Below, one piece after another: positions 5,986-55,837 of a stretch of DNA of 56,895 nt. The notes beneath the pieces were generated by a model. The model did not search any database. It was not told the DNA's origin and saw nothing but the letters and a program-made list of their open reading frames with translations. Where the stretch lies: NCBI RefSeq assembly GCF_004010195.1, contig NC_057719.1, positions 10,193,300 to 10,250,194 of the forward strand. The letters are read 5' to 3'. A program made the translations under genes and the position numbers. This DNA is from Chiloscyllium plagiosum. Taxonomy: Eukaryota. Within the stretch, counting starts at the first letter, position 1. Each line of letters opens with the position of its first letter.

Positions 5986-6854
5986 AGCAATTAACTTATG
6001 CAGCCTGCTAAAGTGGACAGCCTCACGTTTACTCCTGTTATCCTCTATCTGCTATTGCTTAGCTCACTCCTTTAATGTCTCTGTTACGGGAACAGGGCGA
6101 GCGGGTGGGGGGTGGGGGGGGGGGTGTTGCGGGGAGGCCCCCAAAATGGCTGCCACCTAACTCTACTTTTGGCTCCAGACAGACAGTTTTCATTTCCCAG
6201 AGATCCTCAATGCCACTAATTTGCTTCTGGACCAATCAGCCCACCTGTATTTTTATGGTGGGATGATACAGGGTCAGTACCTGGAGATCTCCTGAGTACT
6301 TGTTCCCATGCCTGACTTTGAAAGTCCACTCTAGTCCTCCCTCGCTACAGGTTGCACCTGTCCTGCTGGGTAGCTCCACTATTCTCTGCGTTTCTTCTCA
6401 AAAATGCCAATTGAAGTTTGTAAACAAAATTTTCATAAAAGAAGGCTCCTTAGTCATATAATTTCTGCAGCTGTAATATACTGACATTCATGTTCTCCAA
6501 AACCTTTATGTAGGGTTGAGTTATAAGTAATTGAAGATCACAATGATCAGGGATGGATCCCAGACCCTGGTAAGTTCTTGGCTATGCAAGGAGGGGGAAT
6601 AGTTGGGTGTATGGATTTTGCTGACCAGGCAAGAACTGCCTTGGTTGAGAGGAGGTAGGTAGATAAGATTCGGATGGCAGTGCCCTCAGTGTAAACACCA
6701 CTCAGACTAGTCGTCAACCCCCTTCCTTCTCACATGTTCACCAACTGGGTTAAAAAATGATCAATCGGTCAACTGCCTGCACACATTGACCATATTATAA
6801 CATGAACAGTGTCATGCTCAGATGAAAGGGATAGTTAACATGCTCAATTATCTA

Positions 6855-8820
6855 TGTAGTGACTGGAATGAGGACCAGGTGGATCTCACTGACTATAAGA
6901 TCCCCGAATGGGGTTGTTAACCCTGGGCCAATCAGGAAGCCCTGGCTGACAGAAGTGCAGTGCATTATTTCTCCCTCCAACTCTATTTTGATTTAGTCCC
7001 TACCCTCCCCTTCACTGTTTTGATAACACAGCACTGCCCTTTGATGTGAAGGGCAGTGCTTGTCACTGGCCACCCGCGTGTTTTCCTATCTTCCTGAAAA
7101 AAAAATAAAAAATAAACAGAAGTGCAGTGCATTATTTCTCCCTCCAACTCTATTTTGATTTAGTCCCTACCCTCCCCTTCACTGTTTTGAACACACAGCA
7201 CTGCCCCTTGATGTGAAGGGCAGTGCTTGTCACTGGCCACCCGGGTGTTTTCCTATCTTCCTGGTGGTGGAAATTGAATAAAGATTTGTGCACTTTGTGT
7301 CTTTCACTGTGTCTCCCACCTGCACACACACAAAAGATAAGAAGAAAAAAAAAATTAACAGGAGATTAAGGGCAATGTTTGTCACTGGCCACTTGAGTGT
7401 TTGCCTATTGTGAGGAAAAAAAAAACAGGGGACTCACTGTCCTTTGATGTGAAGGGCAGTGTTTGTCACTGGCCAAAAAAAGAAAAAAAAATAAACAGAA
7501 GTGCAGTGCATTATTTCTCCCTCCAACTCTATTTTGATTTAGTCCCTACCCTCCCCCTCACTGTTTTGATCACACAGCACTGCCCTTTGATGTGAAGGGC
7601 AGGAATTTGAATAAAGATTCGTGCACTTTGTGTCTTTCATTGTGTCTCACACCTGCACACACACACCATGGGTGCTGGGGATAAAATAAGCACTACCGCA
7701 CTTAGGTGGTAGTGTGGGGGTTAATAAAACAAAAAGAAAAGAAAAGAAAAGAAAATAAACAGAAGAAGTGCAGTGCATTATTTCTCCCTCCAACTCTATT
7801 TTGATTTAGTCCCTACCCTCCCCTTCACTGTTTTTGATCACACAGCACTGCCCTTTGATGTGAAGGGCAGTGTTTGTCACTGGCCACCCGGGTGTTTTCC
7901 TATCTTCCTGGTGGTGGAATTTGAATAAAGATTCATGCACTTTGTGTCTTTCACTGTGTCTCACACCTGCACACACACACCATGGGTGCTGGGGAAAAAA
8001 ATAAGCACTACCGCACTTAGGTGGTAGTGTGGGAGTTAAAAATTAAAAATAAAATAAAATAAAAAATAATTTAAAAAAATAAACAGAAGAAGTGCAGTGC
8101 ATTATTTCTCCCTCCAACTCTATTTTGATTTAGTCCCTACACTCCCCTTCACTGTTTTGATCACACAGCACTGCCCTTTGATGTGAAGGGCAGTATTTGT
8201 CACTGGCCACCCGGTGTTTTCCTATCCCTTCACTGTTTTGAACACACAGCACTGTCCTTTGATGTGAAGGGCAGTGTTTGTCACTGGCCACCCGGGTGTT
8301 TTCCTATCTTCCTTGTGGTGGAATTTGAATAAAGATTTGTGCACTTTGTGTCTTTCACTGTGTCTCACACGTATACACACACACCATGGGTGCTGGGCGA
8401 AAAAATAAGCACTACCGCACAACAGTTAGGCAGTAGTGTGGGGGTTAAAAAAAAAACAGGAGATTTGGGTGCTGGAAAAAAAATAAGCACTACTGCAACT
8501 AAAAAGAATAAATAAATAAATAAATGAACAGAAGATTCACTGGCCACTCGGGTGTTTCCTTTCTTCCTGCTGATTTTGGTGCCTGCCTCCCTAGTGTTCC
8601 ATTCTTTTAAAAAAAATAGAAACAGGAGTGTCAGATATCTTGCTCACTCTAAGAAGAAAAAAAAAGAAAAAAAAAAGAAAAAAGAAAGAAAAAAAATAAA
8701 CAGAAGATTCAGAGAGTCTCCACATTCTAGGGACTGGCTCTGAGCTGGCTGGTCATTGCTCAAGCATTGTGTATGTATAAATAAAAGATGACAGGATATG
8801 GCCTCTAATACGTTATTTCA
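6855..8820 (+). mobile_element. Solo LTR-like repeat (TG...CA) interrupted by a cluster of Tx1 3' ends
   Basis: Starts TGTAGTGAC, CCAATCAGG at about 6928, AATAAA at about 8780, ends GTTATTTCA. A homologous copy lies at 22188-22778. Confidence 0.65.
6955..8700 (+). mobile_element. Tandem cluster of about 9 Tx1-like LINE 3'-end fragments separated by A-tracts and AAACAG(A/G)AG
   Basis: Near-identical to the ORF2 end and 3' UTR at 55490-55800. Confidence 0.88.
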
Positions 8821-9264
8821 ACCTGTTAATTATTATTCTACAAATGGTGGGAGGATGAGCAGATAGCTGATTTTGGTGCCTGCCTCCCTAATGTTCCATG
8901 GGAATTGGGTCAGGTATGCACAGGGTATCAATGGGCCAGCTACCTGACCTATTTTATGTGCCCTCTTCCCTCTGAAACCTGTACAACAGGGGAGCAGTGG
9001 AGAAATTAAGTGAGCTCATAACAATGGCAGGTATAATTAATGCATTTGTGAGCCATGAGAATCTTTAGCAGCAAATACAGGCCTGGACTATTCTTCAGTG
9101 GAAATGAGAAACACTGGCCAGGCTGAATGTGTTGCTGATTGCCAATTACTACAAAAGCTGCCAATTGCATTGGACTGCATTGACTTGCATTGGTTGGAGC
9201 CACAGGAGTTTTGCAAACAACAATGAGGTGACAAAGCAGCTAGATTAGTTCATTTGGCAGCATT

Positions 9265-9420
9265 GGTTTAAAAATTAATATTTTCAGTGTAGTATTCTTC
9301 AAAAAGTGTCATGGATTTTGAACAGCAAAAATAAATCACAGGAAGCTATGCTTCCAATGAATCCAAAGACAAGCACTTTCAACAGTACAGTTGTCCCCTC
9401 AAATTAACTGGGGCATTATG
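9265..9420 (-). mobile_element. Deu-domain SINE remnant
   Basis: Degenerate reverse complement of the GTGC.GTCTTT.GGAT..ATCC.ATG.CACT.TTT.GAAGAA core; similar pieces at 21965-22105 and 42465-42600. Confidence 0.5.
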
Positions 9421-9474
9421 TGCTTCAGTTAGAAGTGATGTCTGTGCTAGCAATATTCCAACTCCACAGTAACA

Positions 9475-10377
9475 ATCCATCACGTAAGCCAGCCTTCCAT
9501 CCACTGACTCCATCCATACTACTTGCTGCCTCAGGAAGGCAACCATCATCGAGGACCCCTCCCACCCCGGTTATAATATCCTCCAACCTTTTCCACCAGG
9601 CAGAAGACATGTAACAACAAGTTCAAGAACAGCTTCTTCCTCACTGTTATTCAACTTCTGAATGGACCTCACAAATGTTAAATTTAATGTGGACCTTGCT
9701 CTTTGTACACCTTCTCTGCAGCTTTAACATTGTATTCCTCACTCTGTTACTGTTATGACACAGAGGTGAATCACTCTGTTAATTAAACCAAATACCCAGA
9801 AAAGCTCACCTTGCCTCGTAATTTGTTGACGTGAGTGACAGAGACCTCACAAATTCCACTATTTAAGGAAAATATCATCAATTTATTTTTTAACTCTAAA
9901 AGTGAACATTAAACAACTATTCACAATTCTAAGCCCATTTTTCTCTTAACTGCTTATCATTTGACTCCAACTCTATAACAATATGCTGTTCCATTAAAAC
10001 ACTTATTAAAATTACATCAACTTAATTTCAAAACTCAACAGCCACTATCTTCTTCTGTGTCTTTCTTCTTCCGGCTGAAGCTCTCCCTGGGTCATCTTCT
10101 TTCTTTTTACTGTGATTATGTTTCATTTCAAAAGGTCCCTTTGATGGAGAGTGTTTCCTAATATCTTGCAGAGTAAGATGTTAGTTGTCCAGGTGTTTCT
10201 GTCTCGATGGCAGTTGTTCTCCCTTAAAGGTATAGGACACACCTTCAACTTCATACCAATTACCCTAACGCACTTTGCATGATTTGTTGATCTGCCTGTA
10301 CAGCACATAAAACAAGACTTTTCACTGTACTTAGGTGCATGTGACAAAAATAAATCAAATCAAGGATCAAATCAATC
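9475..10377 (+). mobile_element. Rex1/Babar LINE 3' end interrupted by a solo LTR
   Basis: Remnant II.DPSHPGY..LQPFPPGRR..KFKNSFF..VIQLLN; the 3' UTR resumes at 10259 and ends in (AAATC)n. Confidence 0.8.
9751..10258 (-). mobile_element. Solo LTR
   Basis: Ends TGTTATGA / TCATACCA; 5-bp TSD GTTAC/ATTAC; AATAAA on the minus strand at about 9885; cleanly splits the Rex1 UTR. Confidence 0.75.
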
Positions 10378-10504
10378 TTACCAATCACAAACAAACCAAG
10401 TGTGGTTATGGGTCCCTTTACTGAGCGACTTGTTTCCACATGTCTTTTCCCAATTTTCTGCTTTAGTGGTTTTGTTTCCTGGAATGGTTCCAGAGATGAA
10501 GGAT

Positions 10505-10850
10505 CATAGAAGCATAGAAAATAGGAGCAGCAGTGAACCATTTGGCTCTTCGAGCTTTCGCTGCTGTTTAATATGACCATGGTTGATCATTCAACTCAGT
10601 CCCCTGTTCCCATTTTCTCCCTAGACCCTTGGATCCCTTTAGCCCCAAGAACTATACCTAACTCCTCCTTGAAAACATTCTACATCTTGGCCTCATCCGC
10701 ATTGTGTGTTTGAAAATTCCACAGGGCTCACCACTCTGTAGGTGATTAAATTTCTCATCTCAGTCCTGAATGGTCTAGCCCATATCCTTAGATCATGACC
10801 CCTGGTTCCAGACTCCCCCAGTCATCAGAAACCCCCTTTGTGCATTACCC
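10505..10850 (-). mobile_element. CR1 3' fragment
   Basis: CATAGAA tail, AATAGGAGCAG..CCAT motif and W/N-LP coding remnants. Confidence 0.8.
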
Positions 10851-10879
10851 CTATGTCGTCCTTCATCACAGTTAGAGGG

Positions 10880-11415
10880 ACAGGTTGAAAAGCTGGGAGC
10901 TCAGTAATCTCCTTAAAGCAGAGGAGGCTAAGAGGAGATTTGATGAAGGTGTTTAAAAAAAGGACTAAGTAGAATAAACAGAAACCACTTCTAATGGCTG
11001 AAAGTGTGCTGATTTAGAATCAGCCAGGCTCCACGGTGTAAAACACTTTGACAGCAAATAGAAAGCACTGCCTAAAATAACAATGGACTCAACAGTAACT
11101 TTCTAATGGGAAGTAAATAAATGAAAACTGTTCACATTGCATAAAAGAATAGAGAACAAGAGGACACAGGTTTAAAGGTAATTGAGAAAATTTGCAATGG
11201 CGATTGAGAAAACCATTTATCATGAAGTTAGTGGCTGGGATCTGGACTGTGTTGCTAATTGACTTTGCTTGTTGTAGTAAGGCATTTGAGAAAGAATTGG
11301 ATTGTTAACTGAAAAGGAAGAATGTGCAGGGCTGCAGGGAGAAAGCAGGGTACTCGGTACACTGTTTGCCTTCACATGGCCAGTGAACAGCCCAAGCAGC
11401 TTCTTTCTGCTATAA
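10880..11415 (+). mobile_element. Old CR1 3' fragments
   Basis: RLEKLG..SLKQRRLRGDL..VFK and RTRGHRFKG remnants. Confidence 0.6.
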
Positions 11416-11449
11416 TGAAACTGTGACATACTTGAAGGAGAAAAGAAAT

Positions 11450-12478
11450 TGAACTGCAACATTACATCCCAACTCCTATAATCAATGCTCTGATCAATGA
11501 AGGCAAGCATGGCAAATGCCTTCTTCACGACCCTGTATACCTGCAACACCACTTTCAAGGAACTATGAACCTCTTGGTCCCTCTGTTCAACAACACTCCA
11601 CAGGGGATCACTGTTAACTTTGTAAGTCCTGCCTCGGTTTGTCTTACCATCTCGCATTTATCCAAATTAAACTCCATCCGCCACTCCTTGGCCCATTGGC
11701 TCATCTGATCAAGATCTTGTATACTCTGAGATAATCTTCTTCTCAATCCTTAATGCCACCAATTCTGGTGTCATCCACACACACTTACTAACCATACCAT
11801 CGAAATTCTCAGCCAAATCGTTAATGTAAATGACAAACAATTGTGGACCCAGAAACCATCCTTGCGGCACACCACAGGCCTCCAGCCCAAATACCACTCT
11901 CCACCACCACTCTCTGCATGAGATGTTGGTGACGCCACTTTTGGAATACTGCAAACAATTCTGGTCACCCTGCTATAGGAAGGATATTGTTAAACTCTAA
12001 AGGGTATTGAAAAAATCGACAAGGATGTTGCTAGGACTGCAGGGTTTGAGTGAGGAGAGGTTAGCTAGGCTGCAATTGTTTTCCCTGAAACATCAGAGGC
12101 TGAAGAGGTGACCGTATAGTGGTTTATAAAATCATGAAGGGCATGGATAGAGTGAATAGTCAAGGTCTTTTTCCCAGTGTAGGGGAGTCCAAGACTAGAG
12201 GGCATAGGCTTAAGATGAGAGGGGAAAGATTCGAAAGGGACCTGAGGGGCAACTTATTCCCAAAACGGGTGATGAGTGTATGGAATGAGCTGCCAGTGGA
12301 GTTGGTAGAGGAAGGTACAGTTACAACATTTAAAAGGCATTTGGATGGTACACAAATAGGGAAGGTATGGAGGGATACAGGCCAAACGCTGGCAAATGGG
12401 ACGAGTTCAATTTAGGATATCTGGTCAGCAAGTTGGACCGAAGGGTCTGCTTCCGTGCTGTATGACTCTATGACTCTA
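11450..12478. mobile_element. CR1/HER1 insertion with a 5' inversion (minus 11450-11915, plus 11920-12478)
   Basis: Minus part carries GVPQG..LFVIYINDL to SWDVMLQ; plus part continues LV.PLLEYC to the (CTATGACT) tail. Confidence 0.85.
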
Positions 12479-13424
12479 AGTTCAATAATATAGGGTAAGA
12501 GCCAGGGAATGGGATAGACTGGACTGCTTTTCAAAAGAGCTGGCACAGAATTGATGGGCCAACTGGCCGCCTTCTGCGCAAAACTACTCTAGGAGTCATA
12601 TTTAGGGTACAGTGTTTACATCAGTCAGCTGCCAGATCAGGAGAACTCTGCAAGGATTCCACCTGACTTGCGTGATCCAATGAACAGTGGAACACACTTG
12701 ATGGACCGAATGGCCCAGTTCTTCTTCCACGTTTTATGACATTGAAACCGAAAAGCTGAGCTGGGACTGTCATGTGGGCAAAAAAAAAAACGAGCAAGCT
12801 TTGTTTGCAAAAGGGACCATCGAAGATCAGTAACCCATTGGATACATAAATGATGTTACCAGATTGAATAATTTGCATGTTTTTCTTCAACAGTGTAAAC
12901 TAATTTTACATAACACAATGCCAGCTGAGCAAACTGTCTGCGTGCCCGCCAACTTGCAACAGCTCTGCTTCTGCAAATCCCAGTCTGATTTCTTACAGAT
13001 GGCTGGCATTTCACATGCTTAATGCGGTCACAGAAAGTTGCAGATACAAGAAACGAAAAGAAGAATGGAAACAAATAAAAACACAATTATGGCACCATAA
13101 TCACATTACTAGAATGCCAACCCAATAGAAATTCCAATGCAGAATTCAACTGTTCAAGAAAATTGGGTTCCATGAAGAGATTTGCTCACCAGATGAAAAT
13201 AGTAAAGTAAACGTCTATTTATATTTTGTACCATTGTAAGTATTTTCAATATATTATCCATTAATACTCTAAATCCTTCCCTCTGCTGCAAGGAAATCAA
13301 CATTCTCTGAAGTTTAGAGACTAAAGTCTGATCTCACTGAAAGGGAGGAGTTGAAAGACTGCTTTCGTTGATTGAGAATTCTCCGATTTGGTAGGTCACA
13401 TGAAGAGAAACATCTTCACTCAGA

Positions 13425-14375
13425 TGTCAGAGAGTCAGAAAGTCCAACAGCACGGAGACAGGTCCTTCAAATTCTTTCCTATCCATGTATTTGTCCAAAT
13501 GGCTTTTAAATGTTGTTAATGTATCCACCTCAAACACTTGAGCTGGCAGCTCATACTCATGTGTACCAACCTCTGTGTAAAAACGTTGCCCCTCAGGTTC
13601 CCATTTATTCTATCCCCTCTCATCTTAAACTGATGTCCTCTAGTCTTCGATTCCCCAATCCTGAGAAAAAGACTGAGTGCATTCACCCTTTCCATGCCTC
13701 TCATGATCTTATACGCTTCTGTAAGATCCCACCTCAGTGTCCTACAGTCTAAAGAGAAACGTCTTAGCTTGTCCATCCTCTCCCTATAATTCAGACCCTT
13801 GAGTCCTGGCAACATCCTTGTAAATTTCTTCACACTTTTTCCAGTTTAATAATATTTTTCCTACAGCAAGGTGACCAAAGTGCGGCTTCACCAATGTACT
13901 GTATAACTGTAAGATAACTTCCCAAGTTCTGTACTTAGTGCCCTGATGAAAGCCGGTGTGCCAAAAGCCTTCTTCACTGCCCTGTCTACCTGTGAGTCCA
14001 CTTTCAGAGAACCATGCCCCTGAACTCCCTCTGTTTCACTACATTTCTTAAGGCCATACCTTTCACCATAAAACTTCTACCTTGATTTGACTTTGCAAAA
14101 TGCAACTCCTGACACTTATCTATATTAAACTCCATTTGCCATTTCTCAGCCTATTCCCCCAGCTGATCAAGGTCCTGCTGCAATTTCGGATAACCTTCAA
14201 CTTCTGATAACTTTCCTCACTGTCCACAACACAACTTATTTTAGTGTCATCTGCAAACTTATCATCATGCCTTGTACATTCTCGTCAAATCATTGATACA
14301 GATAACAAACAGTAATGAGCCCAGAACCAATTCCTGAGGTACGTCACTAGTCACAGGCCTCAAGTCTGACAAGAA
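13425..14375 (-). mobile_element. CR1/HER1 fragment
   Basis: KFTRMLPGLKGLNYRERMDKL..TRGHQFK and a KFADDTK remnant at about 14250. Confidence 0.92.
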
Positions 14376-14439
14376 TGTTGTGAATCTTTAAGGCTTTCTA
14401 ATCTAGAACACAATGACGCTAAGCTGACATACATATTTG

Positions 14440-14740
14440 GGGTAGCACGGTGGCTCAGTGGTTAGCACTGCTACCTCACAGCACCAGGGACCTGGGTTTG
14501 ATTCCAGCCTCGGGCAACTGTCTGTGTGGGTTTTCTCCAGGTACTCCAGTTTCCTCCCACAGTCCAAACATCTGCAGCTTAGATGAACTGGCCATGATAA
14601 ATTTGCCCATTGTGTTGAGGGATGTGTAGGTTAGGTGCATTAGTTGGGGTAAATATAAGGTGAGGTCTGGGTGGGTTAATCTTCGGGGGGTTGGTGTGGG
14701 CTGAAGGACCTGTTTCCACACTGTCGGGATTCTATGATCT
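14440..14740 (+). mobile_element. HE1-type tRNA-derived SINE
   Basis: A box TGGCTCAGTGG, B box GGTTTGATTCC, central GTTTCCTCCCACAGTCCAAA, HER1-like tail CTGTTTCCACACTGT.GGGATTCTATG. Confidence 0.9.
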
Positions 14741-14842
14741 ATTTAACAGTGTAGTATGATGAATTTTTCGGGAATCTCAGAATGCGGAAGTCAGGTAGAA
14801 AAATGGAGTCACTCCAGAATCATCTTATTCGACAGAGGGATT

Positions 14843-15050
14843 GGTTATCTGAGCTGACTGGGTGGCTAGTTTGTGATACAAGATGATGCCAACAGTGCAG
14901 GCTCAATTCCGAGACCAGCCCATGTTATCATGAAGGACTCTCCTTCTCAATCTCTCCCAGATAAGATGATCCACATGTTAAAGCATTATCAGTCATCTCT
15001 CTCCAATGACAGGGCAGCCCTATGATCTGGCACTGTCTTTACCTACCTTT
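14843..15050 (+). mobile_element. tRNA-derived SINE (non-HE1)
   Basis: Degenerate A and B boxes (GGCTCAATTCC); body shared with 630-805. Confidence 0.55.
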
Positions 15051-15333
15051 ATTAAATAGCTCAGCAGACTCAATGGGCTGGATAACAGACTCCCACTTAA
15101 ATTATATTATGGCTAACATTTATGTGGTCTGCTGTGCTTCTCAAATGTCAATACTTTGCAGTTGCGAACCCACAGTGTAATTTACCTTTACATGGCCAAA
15201 CTTTACAAACTGACAGGATTTTTTCTACCTGATCAACCCATTTGGATCTTAGCAACCTCTTTGGTGCTGCCAGTTATTTTTCTGTCTTCTCAGTTCCAAA
15301 TCACTGATACACTCAATGAATGATAAACAGCAA

Positions 15334-15642
15334 TCACAGAATTCCTACAGTGTGGAAGCAGGCCATTCAGCCCATCAAGTCCACACTGCCCCCTCAAAGA
15401 ACATCCCAAAGAACATCCTTGTAACTTCACAATTCTCACGGCCAATCCACCTTGGCTGCACATGCCGAGTCACTAAGGGAAATTTAGCATGGCCAAATCC
15501 ACTCTAACCTGCACATCTTGCGATTGTCGGAGGAAACGAGAGAAATTCACAGAGTCACGGGGTGAATGTGCAAATTCTATACAGACATCGCCCAATGGTC
15601 CCCAGTGCTATAAGGTAGCAGTGCTAACCACTGAGCCACCGT
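15334..15642 (-). mobile_element. HE1-type SINE
   Basis: Reverse complement of the HE1 head (GCAGTGCTAACCACTGAGCCACCG) and tail. Confidence 0.85.
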
Positions 15643-15741
15643 TAGCACTAATTCCCACAAGTTGTTTCCTCTTTTAGGAAACAGGGCAAGGCTTAAAAGA
15701 TCAAATGATGTCCTTCTGCATTGTGTTCATTTGTGACTTTG

Positions 15742-15897
15742 AGAGTGTGGCGCTGGAAAAGCACAGCAGCTCAGGCAGCATCCAAGCAGCAGGAGAATTG
15801 ACATTTCAGTCTCCTCGGATGCCGCCTGACCGGCTGTGCTTTTCCAACATGACACTCTTGACTCCGATTTCCAGCATCTGCAGTCCTCGTTTTCTCC
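15742..15897. mobile_element. Palindromic mini-PLE (family A)
   Basis: Inverted arms of the PLE terminus; 15-bp TSD TC(A/G)TTTGTGACTTTG at 15727-15741 and 15898-15912. Confidence 0.85.
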
Positions 15898-15949
15898 TCG
15901 TTTGTGACTTTGTTGGTTTCCCTCCAATCCCTTGACGCAACTATGGGGA

Positions 15950-16285
15950 GGAATATGGGGAGGTGATGGCCTTATTGCTAGGCTATTAATCAAGAGTCCC
16001 AGGTGATGCTCTGGGGACACGGTTTGAATCATGCCATGGAAGACAGTGGAATCTGTATTTAATAAATATGCAGAATTAAGAGCCTAATGATGACCATGAA
16101 TCCATTGTTAATTGGCGGGAAAATCCCATCCTGCTTACTTTCATGCTTAGCTGATCTGGCCTATATGTGATTCCAGACCCACAACAATGTGACTGTCTCT
16201 TAACTAACTCCTGGGCAATTAGGGATGGGCAATAAATGCTGGCTTAGCCAGTGATGTCCTGACCCCATAAATGAACAAAGAAAGG
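15950..16285 (+). mobile_element. tRNA-derived SINE with a GGGCAATTAGGGATGGGCAATAAATGCTGG tail
   Basis: Homologous to 55838-56345; tail shared with the second CR1-group LINE. Confidence 0.75.
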
Positions 16286-16511
16286 GGCTCTGATATCTAA
16301 TGATTAACTTATAGCTCCATTCAGAAATGGTCTGTTATGCAGTTGCTCGATTGTCCTAACCCATGCTTTCCAAATCTATAAACTAACCTGCTATGTGTGT
16401 GGCATCATAACAACAGGCTCGCCAAAAGATGATTTAAGGAAAAATATCCACTGAGTTATGTACAAGCTGAGATGTCTTTTCAGAAGAGGTGAAGCAGGGT
16501 TATTGGGTCAA

Positions 16512-16592
16512 TAGTTGTGAAGCTGGAAAAGCACAGCAGGTCAGATGGCATCCGAGGAGCAGGAATGTCAACATTTCGGTCCAAAACCTTTT
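16512..16592 (-). mobile_element. PLE family A single arm ending in HHR stem II
   Basis: GCTGGAAAAGCACAGCAGGTCAG..CATCCGAGGAGCAGGA..CATTTCGG. Confidence 0.75.
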
Positions 16593-16765
16593 GCCAAGAC
16601 TTGAGTTTGGGTGGAAACATGACTTCTTCATATTTTATTCAACCAAAACCATTCATAATTTTCAAAACTTTCTCCCTTCAACCTCCTCTGCTCTGAGGAG
16701 GATAAACCCGGCTTCTCCAGTCTCTGCATGTAACTGAAGTCTTCCACTCTTTCCCCTGGCTGAAA

Positions 16766-17065
16766 GGGTGGCATGGGGCTCAGTGGTTAGCACTGCTGCC
16801 TCACAGTGCCAGGGACTTGGGTTCAATACCAACCTCAGGCAACTGCCAGTGTGGAGTTTGCATGTTCTTCCAGTATCTGTTTGGAGTGTCCTCTGGGTAC
16901 TCCCGTTTCCTTCCACAGTCCAAAGATGTGTAAGTTAGGTGGACTGGTCATGCTAAATTGCCCGAATCAGGTAGGGATATGAGTGGGATGCTCTTCTAAG
17001 GGTCAACGTGGACTTGTTGGGTTGAATGGCCTGTTTCCACACAGTGGGGATTCTATAATTCTATA
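16766..17065 (+). mobile_element. HE1-type SINE
   Basis: HE1 head, core and tail present. Confidence 0.88.
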
Positions 17066-18610
17066 CCTGGAGGACTCAGATTTGTGGCAATTGATGGTGA
17101 GATGAGGATCCCTTTTCTGCAGGTAGCAAGTGCAGATGATTGAGAATGCAAAGTTTGAAAGAGTGCTGGAAGCAGGCTCAAAAAAAGTGTTCAGTTTGGT
17201 GAATAATCCAAGAGGAAAATTGCTTAGACAGAGAATTAGTCTGTCTAATTTATTCAATGAGTCAATACAGGCACAATAGGCTAAATAGAACATTCCCATT
17301 TCTCAAATTTCGAGGATAGTACAATTTCCAACATCATTGAGCTGAAGTTTGCCGATGCATTATCATTAGCTATTTTCCTGCATTTTAAGCTTTAAGGACT
17401 ATTTGCATTTTACCATGCTGAAAATGTGACACATTTGGGAGCATAATGACCAATAGATCTCTTTAATGAAAGAAACTTATTTAGAGGGAAACACACAGGA
17501 GATAGTAACTAGATAAACCAGAGGCTAATCAGGAAAAGAAAGGGAAATAAAGCGAGGAAAAGATACTCGAGTGATATTTTTAAAAAAGAAAAATACGAAA
17601 GACACACTTAATTTTCAAAAAAAACTCAACCATTTCCAAAAGAGGACTCCACAGTTATGTTGTTCACTTTCTGGGCTGGAGGGACAGAGTGGCATTATGT
17701 TAGCAATTGCCACATTGTCAAAGGGATGCTATTAATTATAAGGTACCATTTTCATGTGCAGAGTTTCATAACCAATTAATATTCAAGTTCTGAAGGCATT
17801 AAGGGTAATAGCAGAGCCAATGGCAGAGATGTAAATTAACAAGTGAGTCCTGCAACTCTTTGTATTTTTCTTCCTCCCTGTTCTTGCTGGTTGTTTTAGA
17901 CATTTCTGCATGGTTGGTTTTCAAGATGATTTAGTCCAGTAATAAATAACAAAGGTCATTTTAGTCCTTTTTCTACTGCCTTACATACAAACACTGCTAT
18001 CAGCTTAGGCAAAGCATACTATGTACTTGGTGTACATTTAAAATTGCCTTTACGATCAAATGTCATCCTCAATATTATACAAAAGAACATGGTTTCTTAT
18101 ACTTTGCTACAAGCTGCTGAAGGCTGTGATATTACTGAACAATGCAAGATCATGTATCTTTCATTACTTATTTCAGTGTTTGTCTTTTGGATGGTTACAA
18201 GAAATTCAGAAAAGAGAAAAAAAAAACTCCCCTTTGAACTAATTGAAAAGCAGATTACTGTGTATGGTGGGGAACTGAAATAAAGACAGAAAATGCTAGA
18301 TACACGCAGCAGGTCATGGTAGCATCTGTGGAACAAAGAGAAGTTATCACTTCAGGCTGATGGACTGCATAGCATATTGACACAGTCAATGGCATTTCAC
18401 CAGCCTGGCTGACCCTTAATCCACACTTGAATTTCTTCCACAGCTGACTGTACTAGACAGTCGTGTTAAAGCAGAAAGATACAGAACTTTGACATTGTGA
18501 TACTTTGGGTCCAATGTAAACGATTACAATCTTACAATTCTGTTTTGGGAGGGAGGGGATAAAGGCTGTTACAGCTCTCAAAACATTGATTAAACTATGG
18601 TGTTCGTAAC

Positions 18611-18811
18611 AAACAAAAATGGAAATTGCTGGAGAAACTCAGCAGGTCTGGCAGCATCTGTGGAGAGAAAACAGACTTCACGTTTCAAATCCATTGATTC
18701 TTCTTCGGAACTGAGTTACTGGACCTGAAACATTAATTTGGTTTCTCTCTTCCACAGATGCTGACACCACGGTTTCAGATTTCCAGCATCCACAGTTCTA
18801 CGTTTTATATT
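18611..18811. mobile_element. Palindromic mini-PLE (family D)
   Basis: Inverted arms ..CAGCATCTGTGGAGAGA / TCTCT.CCACAGATGCTG meeting at HHR remnants; ~17-bp TSD ACT(A/G)TGGTGTTC(G/A)T(A/G)AC at 18594-18610 and 18812-18828. Confidence 0.7.
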
Positions 18812-19227
18812 ACTGTGGTGTTCATGACTCCCTTAAATTAAAAAAAAAACTTTTACAATGATGGTTTTCTGTGCCAATCTTTTACCCTTCTCCCTGCTCA
18901 ACGTTTGAGTCAGAAAACCAAAGGTATTTCACTTCAAGAGATGTCAAGTTTCACATTTACTGTCCTCTTCAAAATATGATGCAAATTAATTGAGAAGAAT
19001 CAGGATGTTCAAAACACATGCTGTTATGGTACTGAAAGAGGCCATTCAGCCAATTGTGGTTTCACTAGAACTTAAGTTCTCCTTTGAAGCATGGTAGCTG
19101 CTCTAATGCAATATTGAATTTGCAAACAGAAAGCTCCGATAATCAGCATTGTCTCAGTGTAGCTTGCTGGCTCAGAATGATCAGACTATCTGGTATTTTC
19201 ATTATGTTTGATTAGCTGAGTGTTTTT

Positions 19228-21095
19228 TTTTTCTTATTCATTTGGGGATGTGCATGTCATTGGCTGGGCAAGCATGAATTGCCCATCCCTAGTTGCCATA
19301 TTGAGAAGATGGTGGTCAGCTCCCTTTGAATGGCTACAGTCCACATGGTTGGGTACACCCAATGCCACAATGCTCTTGTAGCCATAGTATTTATACAGCT
19401 GATCCAATTTAGCTTCTGATGAATAAACTGCAACATTTGATCGTGGGAAATTCAGTGATGACCATGCTATTGACTGTCAAGGCGCAATGGTTAGATTCTC
19501 TCTTGTTGGAGATGGTCATTCCCTTGCACTAGCATGGCACAAATGTTACTTGCTACTTGTCTTGCTGCTTTTAAACGTCTGAGTGGTCCTGAATGGTGTT
19601 GACCTTTGTACAACCATTGGTGGCCATTCCCACTTCTGACCTTATGGAGGGAAGATCATTGGTGGAGCAACTGAAGATGGTTAAGCAGAGGACACTTCCC
19701 TGAGGAACTGCAGAGATGTCTGGGGGATGTAATGATGCACTTCAAATAACAACAACCATCTTTACTGTGCCAGATATGACTCTAACAAGTGGAGAAATTT
19801 CCCAGATTCTAGCTTTGCTTGATCTTCTTGGTCGAATGCAGTCTTGATATCAAGGGCTCACCTCTGGAATTCAGCTGTTTTGTCCATGTTTTGGACCAAG
19901 GCTATAATGAGGTCAGGAGCTGAGTGGCCCTGGCAGAACCCAAACTGGGTGCCACTGAGCAGGTGCTACTTGATAGGATTGTTGAAGACACCTTCCATCA
20001 TAGAATCCCTACAGAGTGGAAACAGGCCCTTCAGCCCAACGCATCCACACTGACCCACCAAAGATTATCCCACCCAAACCCATTCCCATACCCTATTACC
20101 CTACATTTACCCCTGACTAATGCACCTAACCTACACATCCCCGAGCACTATGGGCCATTTAGCATGGTCGATTCACCTAACTCACACATCTTTAGATTGT
20201 GGGATGAAACTGGAGCACCCAGAGGAAACCCACGGAGACACGGGGAGAATGTGCAAACTCCACACAGACAGTCACCCCAGGCTGGGAATGAACCCAGGTT
20301 CCAGTCACCGTGCCGCTTCAGTTACAGGTGATTCAGAGTAGACTGATGGGTGGTAGTTGGCCAGATAGATCTGTCCTGTTTTGAGTCTACAGGATAATAC
20401 TGGACAATATTCTCATTTCCAGTAGATGCCAGTGTTGTGACTGTACTGGATCAGCTTAGTGGTACAGCAAGATCTGGAGCTCATGTCTTCAATAGCACTG
20501 CCGAAATGTTGTCAGGGACCATAGCCTTAGCCATATCCAGTGACTTCAGTCATTTCTTGATATCACATAGAGTAGATCAAATTAGGTGTAGGCTGGCCTC
20601 TTTGATGCTGGGAACCTCTGAGAGGCTGAAATGGATCATTCATTCTGAACTTCTGGCTGAAGGTTGTGAATGTTTCAGCCTTATCTTTTGCGCTGATAGG
20701 CTAGACTCTTTCTTCATTGAGAATGGGGATATTTGTGGAGCCTTCTCCTTCTCCAATGAGTTGCCCACCACCATTCATGACTGGATGTGGCAGGACTGCA
20801 GAACTTAGATCTGATCCGTTGGTTGTGGAATCACTTTGTCTTGTCTACCACTTGCTGCTTCTGCTGTTTGGCACACAGGTAGTCTTGTTTACTAGCTTCA
20901 CCAGGTCGACATTTTATGTGCAGGTAGGTCTGCTGCGGTTCCTGGTCCGGTCTCCTGAACCAGGCTTGATCCCCGGCTCGATGGTAATGGTAGAGTGGGG
21001 GACAGCATGAGATGGCAGAGTGAATTGAAATGCAATTCTCCCGCTGTAAATGGCGCACAGCAGTTAATTAATGTCCAAGTCTTCACTTACTAGAT
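19228..21095 (-). mobile_element. Second CR1-group LINE, long degraded ORF2 fragment (HE1 nested at 19998-20316; continues at about 21725-21950)
   Basis: Minus-strand remnants LD.AKAM.PDNI.AVLLKT.AP.LA.P and .SI.ANYHPISLL; 3' tail at 19228-19300. Confidence 0.75.
19998..20316 (-). mobile_element. HE1-type SINE
   Basis: CATAGAATCCCTACAG tail through to the head CACCGTGCCGC. Confidence 0.9.
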
Positions 21096-21109
21096 CTACT
21101 TTAAATCCA

Positions 21110-21319
21110 GAGTCAAAAAGTGTGGTGCTGGAAAAGCGCAGCCAGTCAGGCAGCATTCGAGGAGCAGGAGAGTCGACGTTTCGAGTATAAGCTCTTCATC
21201 AGGATGAAGAGCTTATGCTCAAAATGTTGATTCTCCTGCTCCTCGGATGCTGCCTGATTGCTTTTCCAGTGCCACACTTTTTGACTCTGATCTCCAGCAT
21301 CTGCAGTTCCCACTTTCTC
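21110..21319. mobile_element. Palindromic mini-PLE (family A) centred on the HHR
   Basis: Arms of about 95 bp meet at CATCAGGATG; 14-bp TSD CTACTTTAA(A/G)TCCA at 21096-21109 and 21320-21333. Confidence 0.9.
21171..21205 (-). ncRNA. Hammerhead ribozyme (family A), intact core
   Basis: Minus strand: tc CTGATGA a GAG.cttata.CTC GAAA CG TC ga. Confidence 0.65.
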
Positions 21320-21399
21320 CTACTTTAAGTCCAATCTATCTAGCATAGTAATCGAGCCACACAGAATTATGGTGGGTATCTTCAAAGTGAAAACGAGAC

Positions 21400-21722
21400 T
21401 TAAAATTATGAGGGGCGTTAATAGGGTAGACAGGATGGAACTCTTCCCCTTGGTAGAGGAATCAATAACTAGGGACGTAGATTTAGAGTAAGGGACAGGA
21501 GGTTTAGAGGAGATGAGAGGAAAAATATTTTTACCCAGAGGGTGATGGGAGTCTGGAACTCACTCCCTGCAGGGACTGTAGAGGCTGATATCCTCATAAC
21601 ATTTAAGAAGTTTTTAGATATGCACTTGTGATGTCAAGCGCTGGAGAATTGCATGAGAATATTGTTTTTGCAGGATCAATGGACCAAAGGGCCTTTTTCT
21701 GTAATGTAGACCTCTATGACTT
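21400..21722 (+). mobile_element. CR1 3' fragment
   Basis: KIMRG..RVDRMELFPLVEES.TRG.RFRV remnant and a CTATGACT tail. Confidence 0.85.
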
Positions 21723-21964
21723 TAACTGTCCTGTTACCTCTGATGGCTCATTCAGGATTGGTGATGATGGTGCCTGAGACATGGCCATTCTCACAGAATC
21801 ATAACTTACAGACAATGTCAGGCTGTTGCTTGATTAGTCAGTGAGGCAGCTCTCCCAGTTTTGGCACTGGCCCCCAGATGTGAGTAAGGAAGATTTTACA
21901 GTGGTGATAGGGCTGATTCTGCTATTGTCGTTTCTAGTGCCTAGAATGGGTAAGGACAGTAGAT

Positions 21965-22105
21965 TTCTTTCCCTAAAATATTGACCAGCACACGAGAGAG
22001 GACACTCCTGCTCCTCTTCAAAATAGCACAGTGGAATCATTTACATTCACTTAATCTGTTTAATGGCTCATCCAAATGATGACATCCTTGACGATGCAGT
22101 GTAGA
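21965..22105 (-). mobile_element. Deu-domain SINE remnant
   Basis: AATATTGACCAG.ACAC..CTCCTGCTC.TCTTCAAAATAG..GG.ATC.TTTAC.TTCAC. Confidence 0.55.
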
Positions 22106-22187
22106 GTGAAAGGAATTGAACTTTAACTCTCAGCATGCTGTTGAACAAGATAAAAGGAGCTTTGTCATAATGACATGAGGTCACATG

Positions 22188-22778
22188 TGTAGTGACTATA
22201 ATGAGGTCAGTCAGATGGACCTCAGAGAATATGAGTTTCCTGATTAGGGCTGTTAATCTGGTTCAATCAGGGAGCTGTGGCCTACAGGCAAAAATGGGAG
22301 TCTTATGTTAGAGCTCGGGTGTCTCTGGAAAAGGAGCACGCGGTGTCCACCAACACCCTGGAGTTGTTCAGGGAGAGGTGGGCGCCGAAGGGAGTGGAGT
22401 GCATTATTTCCCCCTCCAACTCTATTTTGATTTAGTCCCTCCCCTCCCCTTCACTGTTTGATCACATAGCACTGCCCTTTGATGCGAAGGGCAGCGCTTG
22501 TCACTGGCCACTCAGGTGTTTCTTTGCTTCCTGGTGGTAGAAATTTGAATAAAGATTCGTGCACCTTGTGTCTCTCACTGTGTCTCACACCTGCACACAC
22601 ACAACATGGGTGCTGGGGAAAAAAACAGAAAAAGAAAAAAAGAAAAAAAGTGAAAAAAGGGGGAGTGCTGACACTCTAGTATCTGACTTTGTATGAGGCA
22701 GCACTAAAGCCAATGACTGTCTATGTTTAAATAAAAGTTGATTTTGTGACAGAATACTGACAACTGTGGAGTTATTTA
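22188..22778 (+). mobile_element. Solo LTR-like repeat (second copy) interrupted by Tx1
   Basis: TGTAGTGAC start, CAATCAGGGAG, AATAAA, GAGTTATTT end; collinear with 6855-8820. Confidence 0.65.
22303..22658 (+). mobile_element. Tx1-like LINE 3' fragment
   Basis: YVRARVSLEKEHAVSTNTLELFRERWAPKGVECIISPSNSILI*, then the 3' UTR and an A-rich tail. Confidence 0.88.
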
Positions 22779-23510
22779 GACCATAAGACATTAGAGCAGA
22801 AATTAGGCCATTCTGCCCCCACTGAATCTGCTCTGCCATTCAATCACGGCTGATAAGTTTCTCAAACTCATTGTCCCAGTTTCTCACCATAACCTTTGAT
22901 CCCCTTGTCAATCAAGAACCAATCTAGTTCTGTCTTAAATATACTCGATGACCTGGCCTCCACAGCCGCCTGCGGCAATAAATTCCACAGATTCATCACA
23001 CTCTGACCAAAAAGGTTTCTCCTTATCTCCATTCTAAAAGGTCTTCCCTTTACTCTAAGGCTATGCCCTCAGGTACTGGTCTCTCCTACCAATGGGGTGG
23101 CACAGTGGTTCAGTGGTTAGTACTGCTGCCTCACAGTAACAGGGACCCGGATTTGATTCCTGCATTGGGCGACTATTTGTGTGGAATTTGCACATTCTCC
23201 CTGTGTCTGTTTGGGTTTCCTCAGGGTACCCTGGTTTCCTCCCACAGTCCATAGATGTGCAAGTTAGGTGAATTGGCCATGTTGAATTGCCTGCAGTGTT
23301 GAGGGATGTGTAGGTTAGGTGCATTAGTCTGGGGTAAATGTAGGAGAATGGGTCTGGGTGGGTTACTCTTCAGAGGGTCGGCAAGGACTTGTTGGGTTGA
23401 AGGGCCTGTTTCCGCATTGTAGGGATTCTATTCCAATATAAACATTTTCCCAATGTCCAGCCCGTTCAGTATTCTGTAAGTTTCAATCAGATCCCTCCTC
23501 ATTCTTCGAA
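22779..23510 (-). mobile_element. CR1 3' fragment with a nested plus-strand HE1 SINE (23095-23432)
   Basis: CATAAGACAT tail; HE1 is flanked by a CCAAT duplication. Confidence 0.85.
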
Positions 23511-28346: not shown

Positions 28347-28801
28347 TGGCTACTAAGGATAGCTGGGAACACCAGGTAAGGATAACACCAACTAATCACG
28401 AAATGATACGACCAGCTATCCTTAGTAGCCACGCACTCAGGTGACAAGCAACATGAATTCGATTGGGACAACACTACTATTATAGGACAAGCCAAACAGA
28501 GAACAGCCAGGGAATTCCTAGAGGCATGGCATTCATCCACAGATTCAATCAATAAGCACATCGACCTGGACCCAATATACCGACCACTGCAGCGGACAGC
28601 TGGAACTGACAACCGGAAGCGGCAGATACAAATCACTATAAATACTGGAGGAAACATCACAGAAGTGCTTCACAGGAGGCTCCCAAGCACTGAGGATGTC
28701 ACCGAGACAGGGGACGAAACGTCTGCAACACAAATTCCCAGCTCGGCGAACAGAACCACAACAACGAGCACCCGAGCTACAAATCTTCGCTCAAACTTTG
28801 A
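28347..28801 (+). mobile_element. PLE family B 3' end with tail and a short 5' inverted piece
   Basis: HEFDWDNTTIIGQAKQRTAREFLEAWHS; HHR; tail CCCGAGCTACAAATCTTC..AAACTTTG. 28347-28366 is the reverse complement of 28411-28430. Confidence 0.9.
28687..28726 (+). ncRNA. Minimal type I hammerhead ribozyme (family B)
   Basis: GCA CTGAGGA t GTC.CC-gagaca-GG.GAC GAAA CG TC TGC: stem I GCA/TGC, palindromic ACGT stem III. Confidence 0.85.
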
Positions 28802-29254
28802 AATGAGAAATTGCTGAAGGAAGATTAGAGAATGACGGAGAATGCTGTGAGCTAAGGCAACTTGACGTTGAAAGTGGGAGCACCCTACAACTATCTGATT
28901 AGAGAAGTACACAAGGGGCAGAGAAATGAACAGAAAGGACCTGCTCTAAGGCAGATCACTACTTTTTTGCTGCTACGATTTAAGACAATGAAGAGTGATA
29001 TTAGGCAGTGTGTAAAGCTGGAGCTCCATCCAATTCCATGGGCTTGCTGTTTGGCCTGTTAGGCTGACTTTGCCTGTGGAGTTTACAGCATGGATTCGGT
29101 GCCAAAGTCAGGTTAACCCCAGTTATTCTCAAGAAATACTTTGCCTTGCCTCACTAAAGCACGAGCAAGCTGTGAGCATCACAGAATTTGAAATCCAGCA
29201 CCTGATGTGGCCCTTTCAAAGTTAAACCAAAGCAGCATGTTCCATCTTCTTGGT

Positions 29255-33235: not shown

Positions 33236-33385
33236 AAGAATGTGAGGATTTGCTCTAACATGTTTGGTTTCCTGAGGAAGTCAGTGCAGAATAAAGACAG
33301 GAAAATCATTACTCAAGCGATCCCAATGTCAAGGCATTTTTAAAAAAAATCATTCATAGGATTTGGGCGTTGCCAGCAAGGCCAC

Positions 33386-35530
33386 ATTTATTACCCATTG
33401 CCAATTGTCCATTACCCACATTTATTACCCATTGCTATTTGTCCATTACCTATTGCTAATTTCCCATTACCCACGTTTATTACCCACTGATAATTGCCAT
33501 TACACACATTTATTACCCATTGCTAATTGCCCATTACCCACATTTATTACCCATTCCTAATTGCCCAGTACCATATTTATTACCCATTGCTGATTGCCCA
33601 TTACCCACTTTTATTACCCATCGTTAATTTCCTATTACCCATTTTTATTACCCATTACTAATTGCCCATTACCCACAATTATTACCCATTGCTAAGTGTC
33701 CATTAACCAAGTTTATTGCTCACTGCTAATTGCCCATTACCCACATTTATTATCCATTGCTAATTGTCCATTACCTTTTGTTTCCCATTGCTAATTGCTC
33801 ATTACCCATGTTTATTACCAATTGCTAATTGCCTCTTACCTACATTACCCATTGCTAATTTCCCTATATCCATGTTTATTACCCATTGCTAATTGCCCAT
33901 TACCCACATTTATTATCCATTGCTAATTGCCCATTACCATTTTTGTTTCCCATTGCTAATTGTCCATTAACCATGTTTATTACCCATTGCTAATTGCTCA
34001 TTACCCATGTTTATTATCCATTGCTAATTGCCCATTACCATGTTTATTACCCATTGCTAATTGCTCATTACCCATGTTTATTACCAATTGCGAATTGCCC
34101 ATTACCCACGTTATTACCCATTGCTAATTTCCCTATACCCATGTCTATTACCCATTGCTAATTGCCCATTACCCACATTTATTATCCATTGCTAATTGCC
34201 AATATCCATGTTTATTACCCACTGGTAATTGCCAATATCCACATTATTACCCATTGCTAATTGCCCATTATTCAGATTTATTACCCATTGAAAATTGCCT
34301 ATTACCCACATTTATTATCCATTACTAATTGCCCATTATTTATTTATTACCCATTGCTAATTTCCAATTACCCGTTTATTACCAATTGCTAATTGCCCAT
34401 TACCCACGTTTATTACCCATTGCTAATTTCTCATTACCCACGTTTATTACCCATTGCTAATTGCCCATTACCCACGTTTATTACCCATTGCTAATTGTGC
34501 ATTACCCATGTTTATTACCCACTGCTTATTGCCAATATCCACATTTATTACCAATTACTAATTGCCCATTACCCACATTTATTATCCATTGCTAATTGTC
34601 AATATTCACGTTTATTACCCACTGGTAATTGCCAATATCCACGTTTATCACCCATTGCTAATTGCCCATTATTCAGATTTATTACTAATTACTAATTTCC
34701 CATTACCCACGTCTATTACCCATTGTTAATTGTTCATTATTCACATTTATTACCCATTGCTAATTTCCCATTACCCACATTTATTAACCATTGCTAATTG
34801 TCCATTACCCACATTCACTCCCCATTGCTCATTGCCCACTACCCATGGCTTATTACCCATTGATAATTGCCCATTACCCATATTTATTACCCATTGCTAA
34901 TTCCCCATTATTAACATTACCCATTGTTAATTGCCCATTACCCACATTTATTACCCATTGCTAATTGCCCATTACCCATGTTNNNNNNNNNNNNNNNNNN
35001 NNNNNNNNNNNNNNNNNNNNNNNNNNNNNNNNTTATTACCCATTGCTAATTTCCCATTACCCACGTTTATTACCCATTGCTAATTTCCCATTACCCACGT
35101 TTATTACCCATTGCTAATTGCTCATTACCCACGTTTATTATCCATTGCTAATTGCCCATTACCCATGTTTATTACCCATTGCTAATTTCCCATTACCCAC
35201 ATTTATTACCCATTGCTAATTGCTCATTACCCACATTTATTATCCATTGCTAATTGCCCATTACCCATGTTGACTACCCATTGCTAACTGCACATTACCC
35301 ACGTTTATTACCCATTGCTAATTTCCCATTACCCATGTTTATTACCCATTGCTAATTGCCTCTTACCCACGTTTATTACCCATTGCTACTAATTGCCTCT
35401 TACCCACGTTTATTACCCATTGCTAATTGCCTCTTACCCATGTTTATTACCTATTGCTAATTGCCTCTTATCCACATTTATTACCCATTGCTAACTGTCT
35501 GTTATCCATGTTTATTATCCATTGCTAATT
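33386..35530. repeat. 34-bp minisatellite (TTACCCACGTTTATTACCCATTGCTAATTGCCCA)n, about 60 units, spanning the gap at 34983-35032
   Basis: Read directly from the sequence. Confidence 0.97.
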
Positions 35531-36205
35531 TGCCTTGTGCTGAGTCAACTGCAAAGAAGCAAGTTTGGCAGGTGGTAGTGTCCCTATGCTTGGGCCAGCA
35601 AAGGCCCACCTGTTCTACAAACATTTTTCATAGCATCTGCAAACAGGTTGATGAGGAAATATAGTAAACTTTGCTTTAATTGGCACCTTATTTCCAGCAC
35701 TCTTGATAATCTGTCAAAAATTATATACACCTCAAATACTGCAGAGTTTACTGTATCATTCTGTCCAATTACAATAGTTTTTAAAAAAAATTAAATTATC
35801 TCAATGTAAATATACTTGTTCATTCAAATGGTAATATTAAATACTAACAGTTGATTGAATTTCGAGTTAATTTCTCCTCAAATCCAGTGATCTACCGCGA
35901 TATATAAGTGGTCAGTTGAGGGTGCAAGTGAGAAGGCTGTCTGTCAATAAGTATTACTTAAGGCAAAATTGCATTATTATTGAAGTGACTGATGCTGTAA
36001 ATATAGTGTCACAGCGATGTGTATACCTGCATTATGTTTCCATTACTTAGTGTGTTTTAGTGCATTTTTACATTGATTATGTGGGCCTCTTGATTCTCCA
36101 GATTATTTGATCAATCAGGACACTCCTGATTCCATAGATGCCAGATAATAAGAAGTTTACTGTATCTACAAGTTCCACATCGAATCAAGCAGTTGTATAT
36201 CTGGA

Positions 36206-54826: not shown

Positions 54827-55233
54827 TCGGTTTTTTAAAGCTTTCATGACTGTTTATTGTCTTCTTTTCTATATTTTGGCCCATCTAAGTATCGACATCA
54901 TGTATTCTATTCTACACCATTTCACTCAATCACCACTGATCGTCATTTGCTCCGGTTCATCTTTGTTTTTAAATCCCTTTATGGACCCACTCTCCTTCAT
55001 TCTCTTACTTCCGAATGCAATGCGAATTATTTTTACACCTTGGAGCAAATGCAGATTTCCATACCAGTTTTGATGCACGCAGGATATTAAGTTACTAGAG
55101 ATTTTGTAAAATATCTGACGTACTTGTAGGTTTTTGGTTCCAGCAACGTTTAGCATTTATTTACCTTTTCTCTGCCTCCAAAGCCAGCCTAAACCAATCA
55201 AAAACAATGAGCATCAGCAGTAAACAGACTTAC

Positions 55234-55804: not shown

Positions 55805-55837
55805 TAAACATACTTACACAATCAAAAAAATAACAAT

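Follow-up and report, generated by a model that had tools for sequence, protein, structure and literature searches.

We found that two long terminal repeat (LTR)-like repeats in the stretch of contig NC_057719.1 analysed here (56,895 bases, hereafter the window) are each split at a homologous site by 3' pieces of a Tx1-like long interspersed nuclear element (LINE), which lie in the same orientation at both places and belong to the family of a third copy at 55234-55762. An earlier note, made from the sequence alone, had already noticed that the same Tx1 family breaks both repeats, and this observation stands. It is likely, with a probability of roughly three in four, that these Tx1-like 3' ends reached the homologous LTR site through a nick by the predicted endonuclease at (T)AAACAG(G/A)AG, which we call the target word. 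The targeting is probably a preference and not exclusive.

Anatomy of the interrupted repeats

The two repeats consist of the following parts:

6855 to 6951, forward strand: LTR-like repeat 1, left part, with a TG start and a CCAAT-like box at about 6928
8697 to 8820, forward strand: LTR-like repeat 1, right part, with the target word at 8697-8711, AATAAA at 8780 and a CA end
22188 to 22302, forward strand: LTR-like repeat 2, left part, with the left target word at 22290-22301
22655 to 22779, forward strand: LTR-like repeat 2, right part, with the right target word at 22655-22666 and AATAAA at 22730

Both repeats open with the letters TGTAGTGACT (at 6855 and 22188), and they are homologous on both sides of the insert: the left parts align with a score of 90 (shuffled sequences: mean 20, maximum 38) and the right parts with a score of 46 (shuffled maximum 37), values that none of 500 shuffles reached in either case. 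Repeat 1 has the ends of a solo LTR (TG at 6855, CA at 8819-8820) together with a polyadenylation signal; in repeat 2 the TG and the AATAAA are likewise present and the aligned end reads AG. The 5-bp flanks are poorly alike, with ATCTA and ACCTG agreeing at 3 of 5 letters around repeat 1 and ACATG and ACCAT at 2 of 5 around repeat 2. Judged by this anatomy, a solo LTR is a good reading of both repeats. We rejected the idea that they are the two ends of one element, since the left parts agree at no more than about 70% and other repeats are scattered over the intervening 13.4 kb. An alignment search found no third copy of the repeat within the window, and a scan of viral contigs with an LTR motif gave 0 matches.

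A stack of ten units at locus 1

The insert in repeat 1 (locus 1) is a stack of ten units occupying 6947-8696; LTR sequence does not continue until 8697. Positions marked "ref" are those in Tx1 copy 3 (55234-55762). The units, and a piece of flanking DNA to which one of them corresponds, are:

6947 to 7112, forward strand: unit 1, target-word remnant, Tx1 ref 55489-55631, A-rich tail
7113 to 7355, forward strand: unit 2, target word, Tx1 ref 55489-55700, tail
7356 to 7421, forward strand: unit 3, target word, Tx1 ref 55584-55624, tail; its own 5' junction
7422 to 7491, forward strand: unit 4, target word, Tx1 ref ~55567-55607, tail; its own 5' junction
7492 to 7755, forward strand: unit 5, target word, Tx1 ref 55489 to the full 3' end with a 46-nt internal deletion, tail
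7756 to 8079, forward strand: unit 6, target word, Tx1 ref 55489 to the full 3' end, tail
8080 to 8452, forward strand: unit 7, target word, Tx1 ref 55489 to the full 3' end with an internal duplication of ~80 nt, tail
8453 to 8524, forward strand: unit 8, target word, Tx1 ref 55704-55736, tail; its own 5' junction
8525 to 8618, forward strand: unit 9, 15-nt target word, Tx1 ref ~55601-55631, a 34-nt copy of 8866-8899, short A run
8619 to 8696, forward strand: unit 10, ~38 nt resembling a sister-subfamily LTR after the target word, A-rich tail; without Tx1
8866 to 8899, forward strand: flanking DNA matching the 34-nt piece of unit 9 at 33 of 34 letters

Every unit opens with a copy or a remnant of the target word, and nine of the ten carry Tx1 3' pieces, all oriented as the LTR. 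In units 2-9 the first 8-15 letters match the right-hand word at 8697 at 8-14 positions, and these word copies of 8-15 nt all begin within about one base of the same position. The Tx1 pieces behind them start at five distinct 5' junctions (ref 55489, 55584, ~55567, 55704 and ~55601) and differ from copy 3 at 3-6 of 89-143 columns.

One of these junctions recurs: units 1, 2, 5, 6 and 7 all begin at ref 55489 and share a letter that is absent from copies 2 and 3. Reads and contigs from four of 22 runs were compared with positions 8226-8900, namely two raw-read runs and a contig set of organism A and a contig set of organism B. A letter common to units 2 and 7 (at place 8242) is carried by no more than 63 of 3,738 reads from X20 and no more than 53 of 3,521 from X21, and units 6 and 7 have a 3-nt doubling in common. 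Since five units share one 5' junction and such rare or shared letters link units 2 and 7 as well as units 6 and 7, part of the stack appears to have been copied locally. The whole thus points to serial insertion combined with local copying, and we count roughly five events in the stack instead of ten.

It may be that units 9 and 10 arose in a single event, because one 15-letter duplication brackets both; the target word of unit 9 matches 8697-8711 at 14 of 15 letters. The ~38 nt of unit 10 align weakly with repeat 1, at a score that 9 of 500 shuffles reached, and the read depth over 8617-8647 in this unit is that of multi-copy DNA.

Several smaller features of the stack deserve mention. The 34-nt piece of unit 9 (8569-8602) has its source about 45 nt past the LTR end, on the same strand, and could be a templated insertion or a read-through RNA that was inserted again. 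We considered splicing as its origin, given a GT after the Tx1 piece and an AG before the flank piece; this is a weak case, the acceptor side being purine-rich. The Tx1 parts of unit 1 (6954-7096) and unit 9 (8540-8569) both stop at ref 55631, upstream of the Tx1 AATAAA (55645), and an organism B contig breaks near the same early 3' end (read joints at 8566), which makes this a recurrent early end. The common 5' junction (6954, 7121, 7500, 7767 and 8091) falls at a point of similarity between Tx1 and the target word; a microhomology hot spot or a non-autonomous short derivative may be its origin.

Separate insertions at loci 2 and 3

Locus 2, in repeat 2, holds a single insert in the same orientation at the site homologous to that of locus 1. 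The two further Tx1 copies are:

22303 to 22654, forward strand: Tx1 copy 2, ref 55398-55722, comprising the last 42 ORF2 (second open reading frame) codons, the 3' untranslated region to an internal A run at 22625, and the tail
55221 to 55817, forward strand: Tx1 copy 3, 55234-55762 with a tail to 55804, between the two arms of a 13-bp duplication (55221-55233 and 55805-55817)

The flanks of copy 2 form a duplication with 10 of 12 letters alike (22290-22301 against 22655-22666), the right word at 22655 being AAAAGGGGGAGT. Compared row by row with the other seven in the alignment, copy 2 shows 6-19 differences over 88-142 columns; against copy 3 the count is 18 of 142 (about 13%). On these sequence comparisons we regard copy 2 as an insertion event separate from the stack, because its 5' truncation differs (ref 55398, against 55489) and its column divergence is larger; the independence that the earlier note had read from the different truncation points is thereby upheld. 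Copy 3 also bears out its description in that note as flanked by a duplication starting TAAACAG: the arms TAAACAGACTTAC and TAAACATACTTAC agree at 12 of 13 letters and start with that word, which is found at 13 of the 659 TAAA sites of the window background.

The consensus AAA(C/T)(A/G)G(G/A)AGT, supposed in the same note to stand on both sides of each insert, does so at neither locus. It matches at 7114, 7493, 8620 and 22292 and at two unrelated places in the window, and it mismatches the left junction of locus 1, the final right word (8697) and the right word of locus 2.

Identity of the inserted family

All Tx1 copies in the window are 5'-truncated and end in an A-rich tail, and the endonuclease region is absent from the window. 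Copy 3 encodes the end of an open reading frame, with a frameshift near residue 61. This peptide matches seven proteins, among them P0003 at 72%; P0003 in turn matches P0009 (70%) and the 1,304-residue P0012 (37%), P0001 matches P0012 at E 7e-9, and the last 42 ORF2 codons of copy 2 match P0009 at 26 of 42 positions. The hit P0047 clusters with the NCBI entry "transposon TX1 uncharacterized 149 kDa protein" of Oryzias latipes. Exo_endo_phos and RVT_1 were found in all four full-length relatives scanned, P0012 carrying endonuclease and reverse-transcriptase domains, and the best solved relative of P0012 is human L1 ORF2; a Pfam scan of P0001 and P0003 returned 0 families.

A quick tree was built from 42 C-terminal regions, P0009 standing in for the window family. 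In it, P0009 groups with P0012 and P0160 (support 100) inside a 34-row group (99) that also holds the Oryzias TX1 cluster. This tree contains neither Tx1L, Keno or Tx1-Mar rows nor an L1 outgroup, and rows covering at most 450 residues of P0009, turtle proteins among them, were left out. The Tx1 label is well supported by ORF2 similarity, and the tree does not settle it. An Rfam scan of 6400-23500 found 0 families, and a small nuclear RNA (snRNA) target is therefore not indicated. Scanning a metagenome for a Tx1 3' motif yielded one match, which we ascribe to chance (20 letters, L001 601-620); this stretch sits in an unrelated prokaryote-like protein-coding region.

Junctions at other loci and the case for target preference

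The Tx1 stretch is present in 18 of 22 runs, from organisms A, B and C. Among the joint rows listed (15 of 126), six connect Tx1 3' ends to the LTR word, in organisms A and B, with five Tx1 3' break points (8377, 8404, 8444, 8456 and 8566). Tandem joints from a tail to a further Tx1 piece are supported by 21 and 12 reads, against fewer than 0.2 expected from locus 1 alone (19 usable read starts at a depth of at most 1), and one X1 contig runs from tail to word and then into Tx1 again. Tx1-to-word junctions and tandem stacks therefore exist at many other loci. We dropped an estimate of the tail-then-word fraction from the depth at 8456-8478, because tail ends, the word itself and a second Tx1 piece all fall in that bin.

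These junctions bear on the possibility that few real insertions took place and that a composite either spread with the LTR element or grew by unequal exchange between duplicated words, which would inflate the apparent targeting. The common 5' junction of units 1, 2, 5, 6 and 7, with its letter missing from copies 2 and 3, fits such an amplification, as do the rare letter of units 2 and 7 and the doubling of units 6 and 7. It leaves unexplained, however, why there are four more 5' junctions with a separate copy of the word before each, a 13%-diverged Tx1 copy in an LTR that is itself ~30% diverged, copy 3 outside any LTR, and the five break points joined to the word at other loci and in other organisms among the joints listed. 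We therefore consider amplification as the main source of the pattern very unlikely.

A generic preference for A-rich DNA, as for L1, with the LTR word as one good site among many, would agree with the T/AAA start of the word. It would also agree with Tx1 reads far in excess of those of this LTR subfamily, and with the loose ends past the Tx1 tail, which show only an A-run majority (430 and 371 reads). Under such a preference two homologous hits would be rare: P is ~1e-5 for the 659 TAAA sites of the window and ~3e-6 for its 1,520 [TA]AAA sites, and P for two of three loci falling anywhere in LTR-like DNA (468 of 52,643 background bases) is ~2e-4, all three being after-the-fact figures because the window was picked for this pattern. 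Moreover, the earlier A tails in the stack offer many A-rich sites, and still every unit begins at the word. A purely generic preference thus appears highly improbable.

Word-directed insertion, the reading that we favour, would proceed by a fixed first nick at the word by the endonuclease, reverse transcription primed at the nicked target, and a second cut of variable position. Each insertion would duplicate the word and so rebuild the site for the next one, and local copying would have enlarged the stack afterwards. The nicking step is suggested by the anatomy of the inserts and by the behaviour of the Tx1L endonuclease, which in vitro nicks almost exclusively its target (PMC1950540). What is recognised would be chiefly the word, rather than a functional promoter, since units of the stack reuse it behind an A tail and copy 3 uses it outside LTR DNA.

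Several points weigh against this reading. One of the three window loci, that of copy 3, lies outside any LTR; the word of locus 2 deviates from TAAACAG at three or more places; and the endonuclease of the family is not seen in the window copies. The layout of the stack rests on the assembly, and no read or contig spans it. In the two raw-read runs, X20 and X21, depth was 0-1 on the single-copy flank, ~5,300 and ~5,000 over the Tx1 3' region and ~320 and ~270 over the LTR core. If the 1,934 million letters amount to roughly half-fold coverage, the Tx1 depth would correspond to some ten thousand Tx1 ends in order of magnitude. Tx1 depth in X20 thus exceeds that of the LTR-1-like core ~16-fold, and many Tx1 copies must therefore lie in stacks, in diverged LTR subfamilies or elsewhere. 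An A run directly preceding unit 10's word AAACAGGAGTGTCAGA extends through 8617 in 46 of 65 reads (X20) and 63 of 82 (X21), a count that favours A-run reads, which align further and are kept preferentially, and that gives no ratio of filled to empty sites. The A-rich stretch 8648-8706 falls outside the read comparison, so that the junction into LTR 1 is lost, the loose ends beyond the tail reveal nothing more than their A-run majority, and the read joints yield no genome-wide fraction. Kojima (2015, PMC4494074) calls a family target-specific when more than 20% of its flanks are of a single sequence type; two of the three window loci agree, which is a count for this stretch and not a genome-wide fraction. 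The earlier proposal that the family targets TAAACAG(G/A)AG holds as a preference for the word, seen at five junctions of locus 1, at loci 2 and 3 and in read joints; with one of the three window loci off the LTR, the targeting may not be strict.

The TATA position and the fate of the promoter

The target site lies between a CCAAT-like box and AATAAA, and from this position it is plausible that it coincides with the TATA position of the LTR. That part of the earlier suggestion may hold, but an intact TATA box is visible at neither window site. Locus 2 reads GCAAAAAT at the presumed TATA position. Compared with locus 2, locus 1 has a shorter left junction, in which the start of the word is missing. 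In the reads, a T stands at 8619 in 32 of 68 and 48 of 83 cases, with letters unphased with 8617.

Tethering by transcription factors is known for other retroelements. A host factor or open chromatin, for instance a TATA-binding complex, could draw the element to the LTR, where a loosely specific endonuclease would cut the nearest A-rich step. The placement of the site where a TATA box is expected speaks for tethering, as does locus 2, where the word is degenerate and the position nonetheless kept. Yet copy 3 uses TAAACAG in non-LTR DNA without a TATA-like context, the stack reuses the word behind A tails at distances of up to 1.7 kb from the CCAAT-like box, and an intact TATA box is visible at neither site. 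We therefore regard tethering as unlikely, and recognition of the word itself as the better account.

Inactivation of the promoter by the insert, as proposed in the earlier note, is doubtful, because by duplicating its target the sense-oriented insert would still be preceded by the upstream flank and one complete word; the beginning of the left word at locus 1 has since been lost. More probably the insert would sit under the LTR promoter and break the LTR's own transcript. A further step, rather unlikely in our estimation, would be promoter capture with a self-feeding array, in which the element aims at the TATA word so that the duplication keeps the LTR promoter whole ahead of it, and this captured promoter transcribes Tx1 pieces together with downstream DNA and these RNAs are reverse-transcribed into the same site. 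Such arrays would explain how five units share one 5' junction and have different 3' ends, and why unit 9 contains a 34-nt copy of DNA from just past the LTR.

Comparison with known target-specific elements

Elements of the Tx1 clade target piggyBac, Mariner and Harbinger transposons, U2 genes and microsatellites (PMC4494074), and sharks carry Tx1 repeats (PMC8455134). The closest parallels are two crocodilian families, Tx1-8_Crp and Tx1-4_AMi, which prefer specific groups of LTR retrotransposons (PMC4494074, section 15). They share this preference with the family described here and differ in host lineage; the main text of PMC4494074 gives for them neither a target word nor a statement of whether the site lies in the LTR or at a TATA box. 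The claim of a specificity that is new in kind has to be given up in view of these two families.

Tx1-Mar and SINEU-3, both in Mariner-N4_AMi, resemble our case in using a fixed site in another transposon with a duplication of ~16 bp, and in forming tandem copies that sandwich the target duplication. Such tandem insertions are taken as sequential events, and transcription of the inserts from the flanking target has been suggested (PMC4494074). Their target, in contrast, is a DNA transposon, and they are described as tandem pairs, whereas locus 1 holds a ten-unit stack with captured local DNA. Tx1L of Xenopus laevis is again a Tx1-clade element at one site of another transposon, Tx1D, which is a piggyBac-type DNA transposon and not an LTR-like repeat (PMC4494074); its specificity resides in an endonuclease that was tested as an enzyme (PMC1950540), whereas the window contains no endonuclease of our family. 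Keno (U2 snRNA), Kibi and Koshi (microsatellites) and Tx1-9_AMi (Harbinger) belong to the same clade and also use multicopy targets, of other kinds (PMC4494074).

We found no paper on a shark Tx1 element at the TATA site or promoter of an LTR, which is weak evidence of absence in a search with most subscription journals and Repbase Reports outside its coverage; within the same limit, PMC4494074 alone bears on LTR-targeting Tx1 elements. The part of the preprint bioRxiv 10.64898/2026.06.26.734816 that was consulted contains nothing on targets. The exact target word and the shark-like host may be unreported so far. Our finding is a new example of known behaviour and not a new principle, because transposon-targeting and LTR-preferring Tx1 families as well as sequential tandem insertion have already been published.

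The example extends the target-specific Tx1 LINEs by one target word and one host lineage, which is shark-like judging from its other repeats. Because the family has thousands of copies and a single short target, it is good material for studying how AP (apurinic/apyrimidinic)-type endonucleases read DNA, a question of relevance to site-directed gene insertion. Where a site renews itself, a stack preserves the order in which its insertions took place and, occasionally, captured sequence. For repeat annotation, the preference accounts for the splitting of this LTR family at a single position.

Other repeats in the window

The window has 42% G+C and includes 1,582 N in four gaps. It is densely filled with dispersed repeats of a shark-like look, which we take to be CR1, tRNA-type short interspersed elements and Penelope-like pieces. 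A repeat with a reverse-transcriptase tail and a GIY-YIG-like nuclease, presumably Penelope-like, occurs in five copies of 89-95% identity (28384-28802, 38348-38901, 39547-39965, 51346-51991 and 53388-53998), with an apparent tandem arrangement across a gap at 51070-53998. A tandem repeat of ~2.1 kb with short units occupies 33382-35535 and is interrupted by a 50-N gap at 34983-35032. A second family bearing a reverse transcriptase lies at 36196-37827 and 47883-48502; its short inverted terminal pieces are scattered in the window, and short copies occur at 15739, 16507, 21102, 24604 and 25150.

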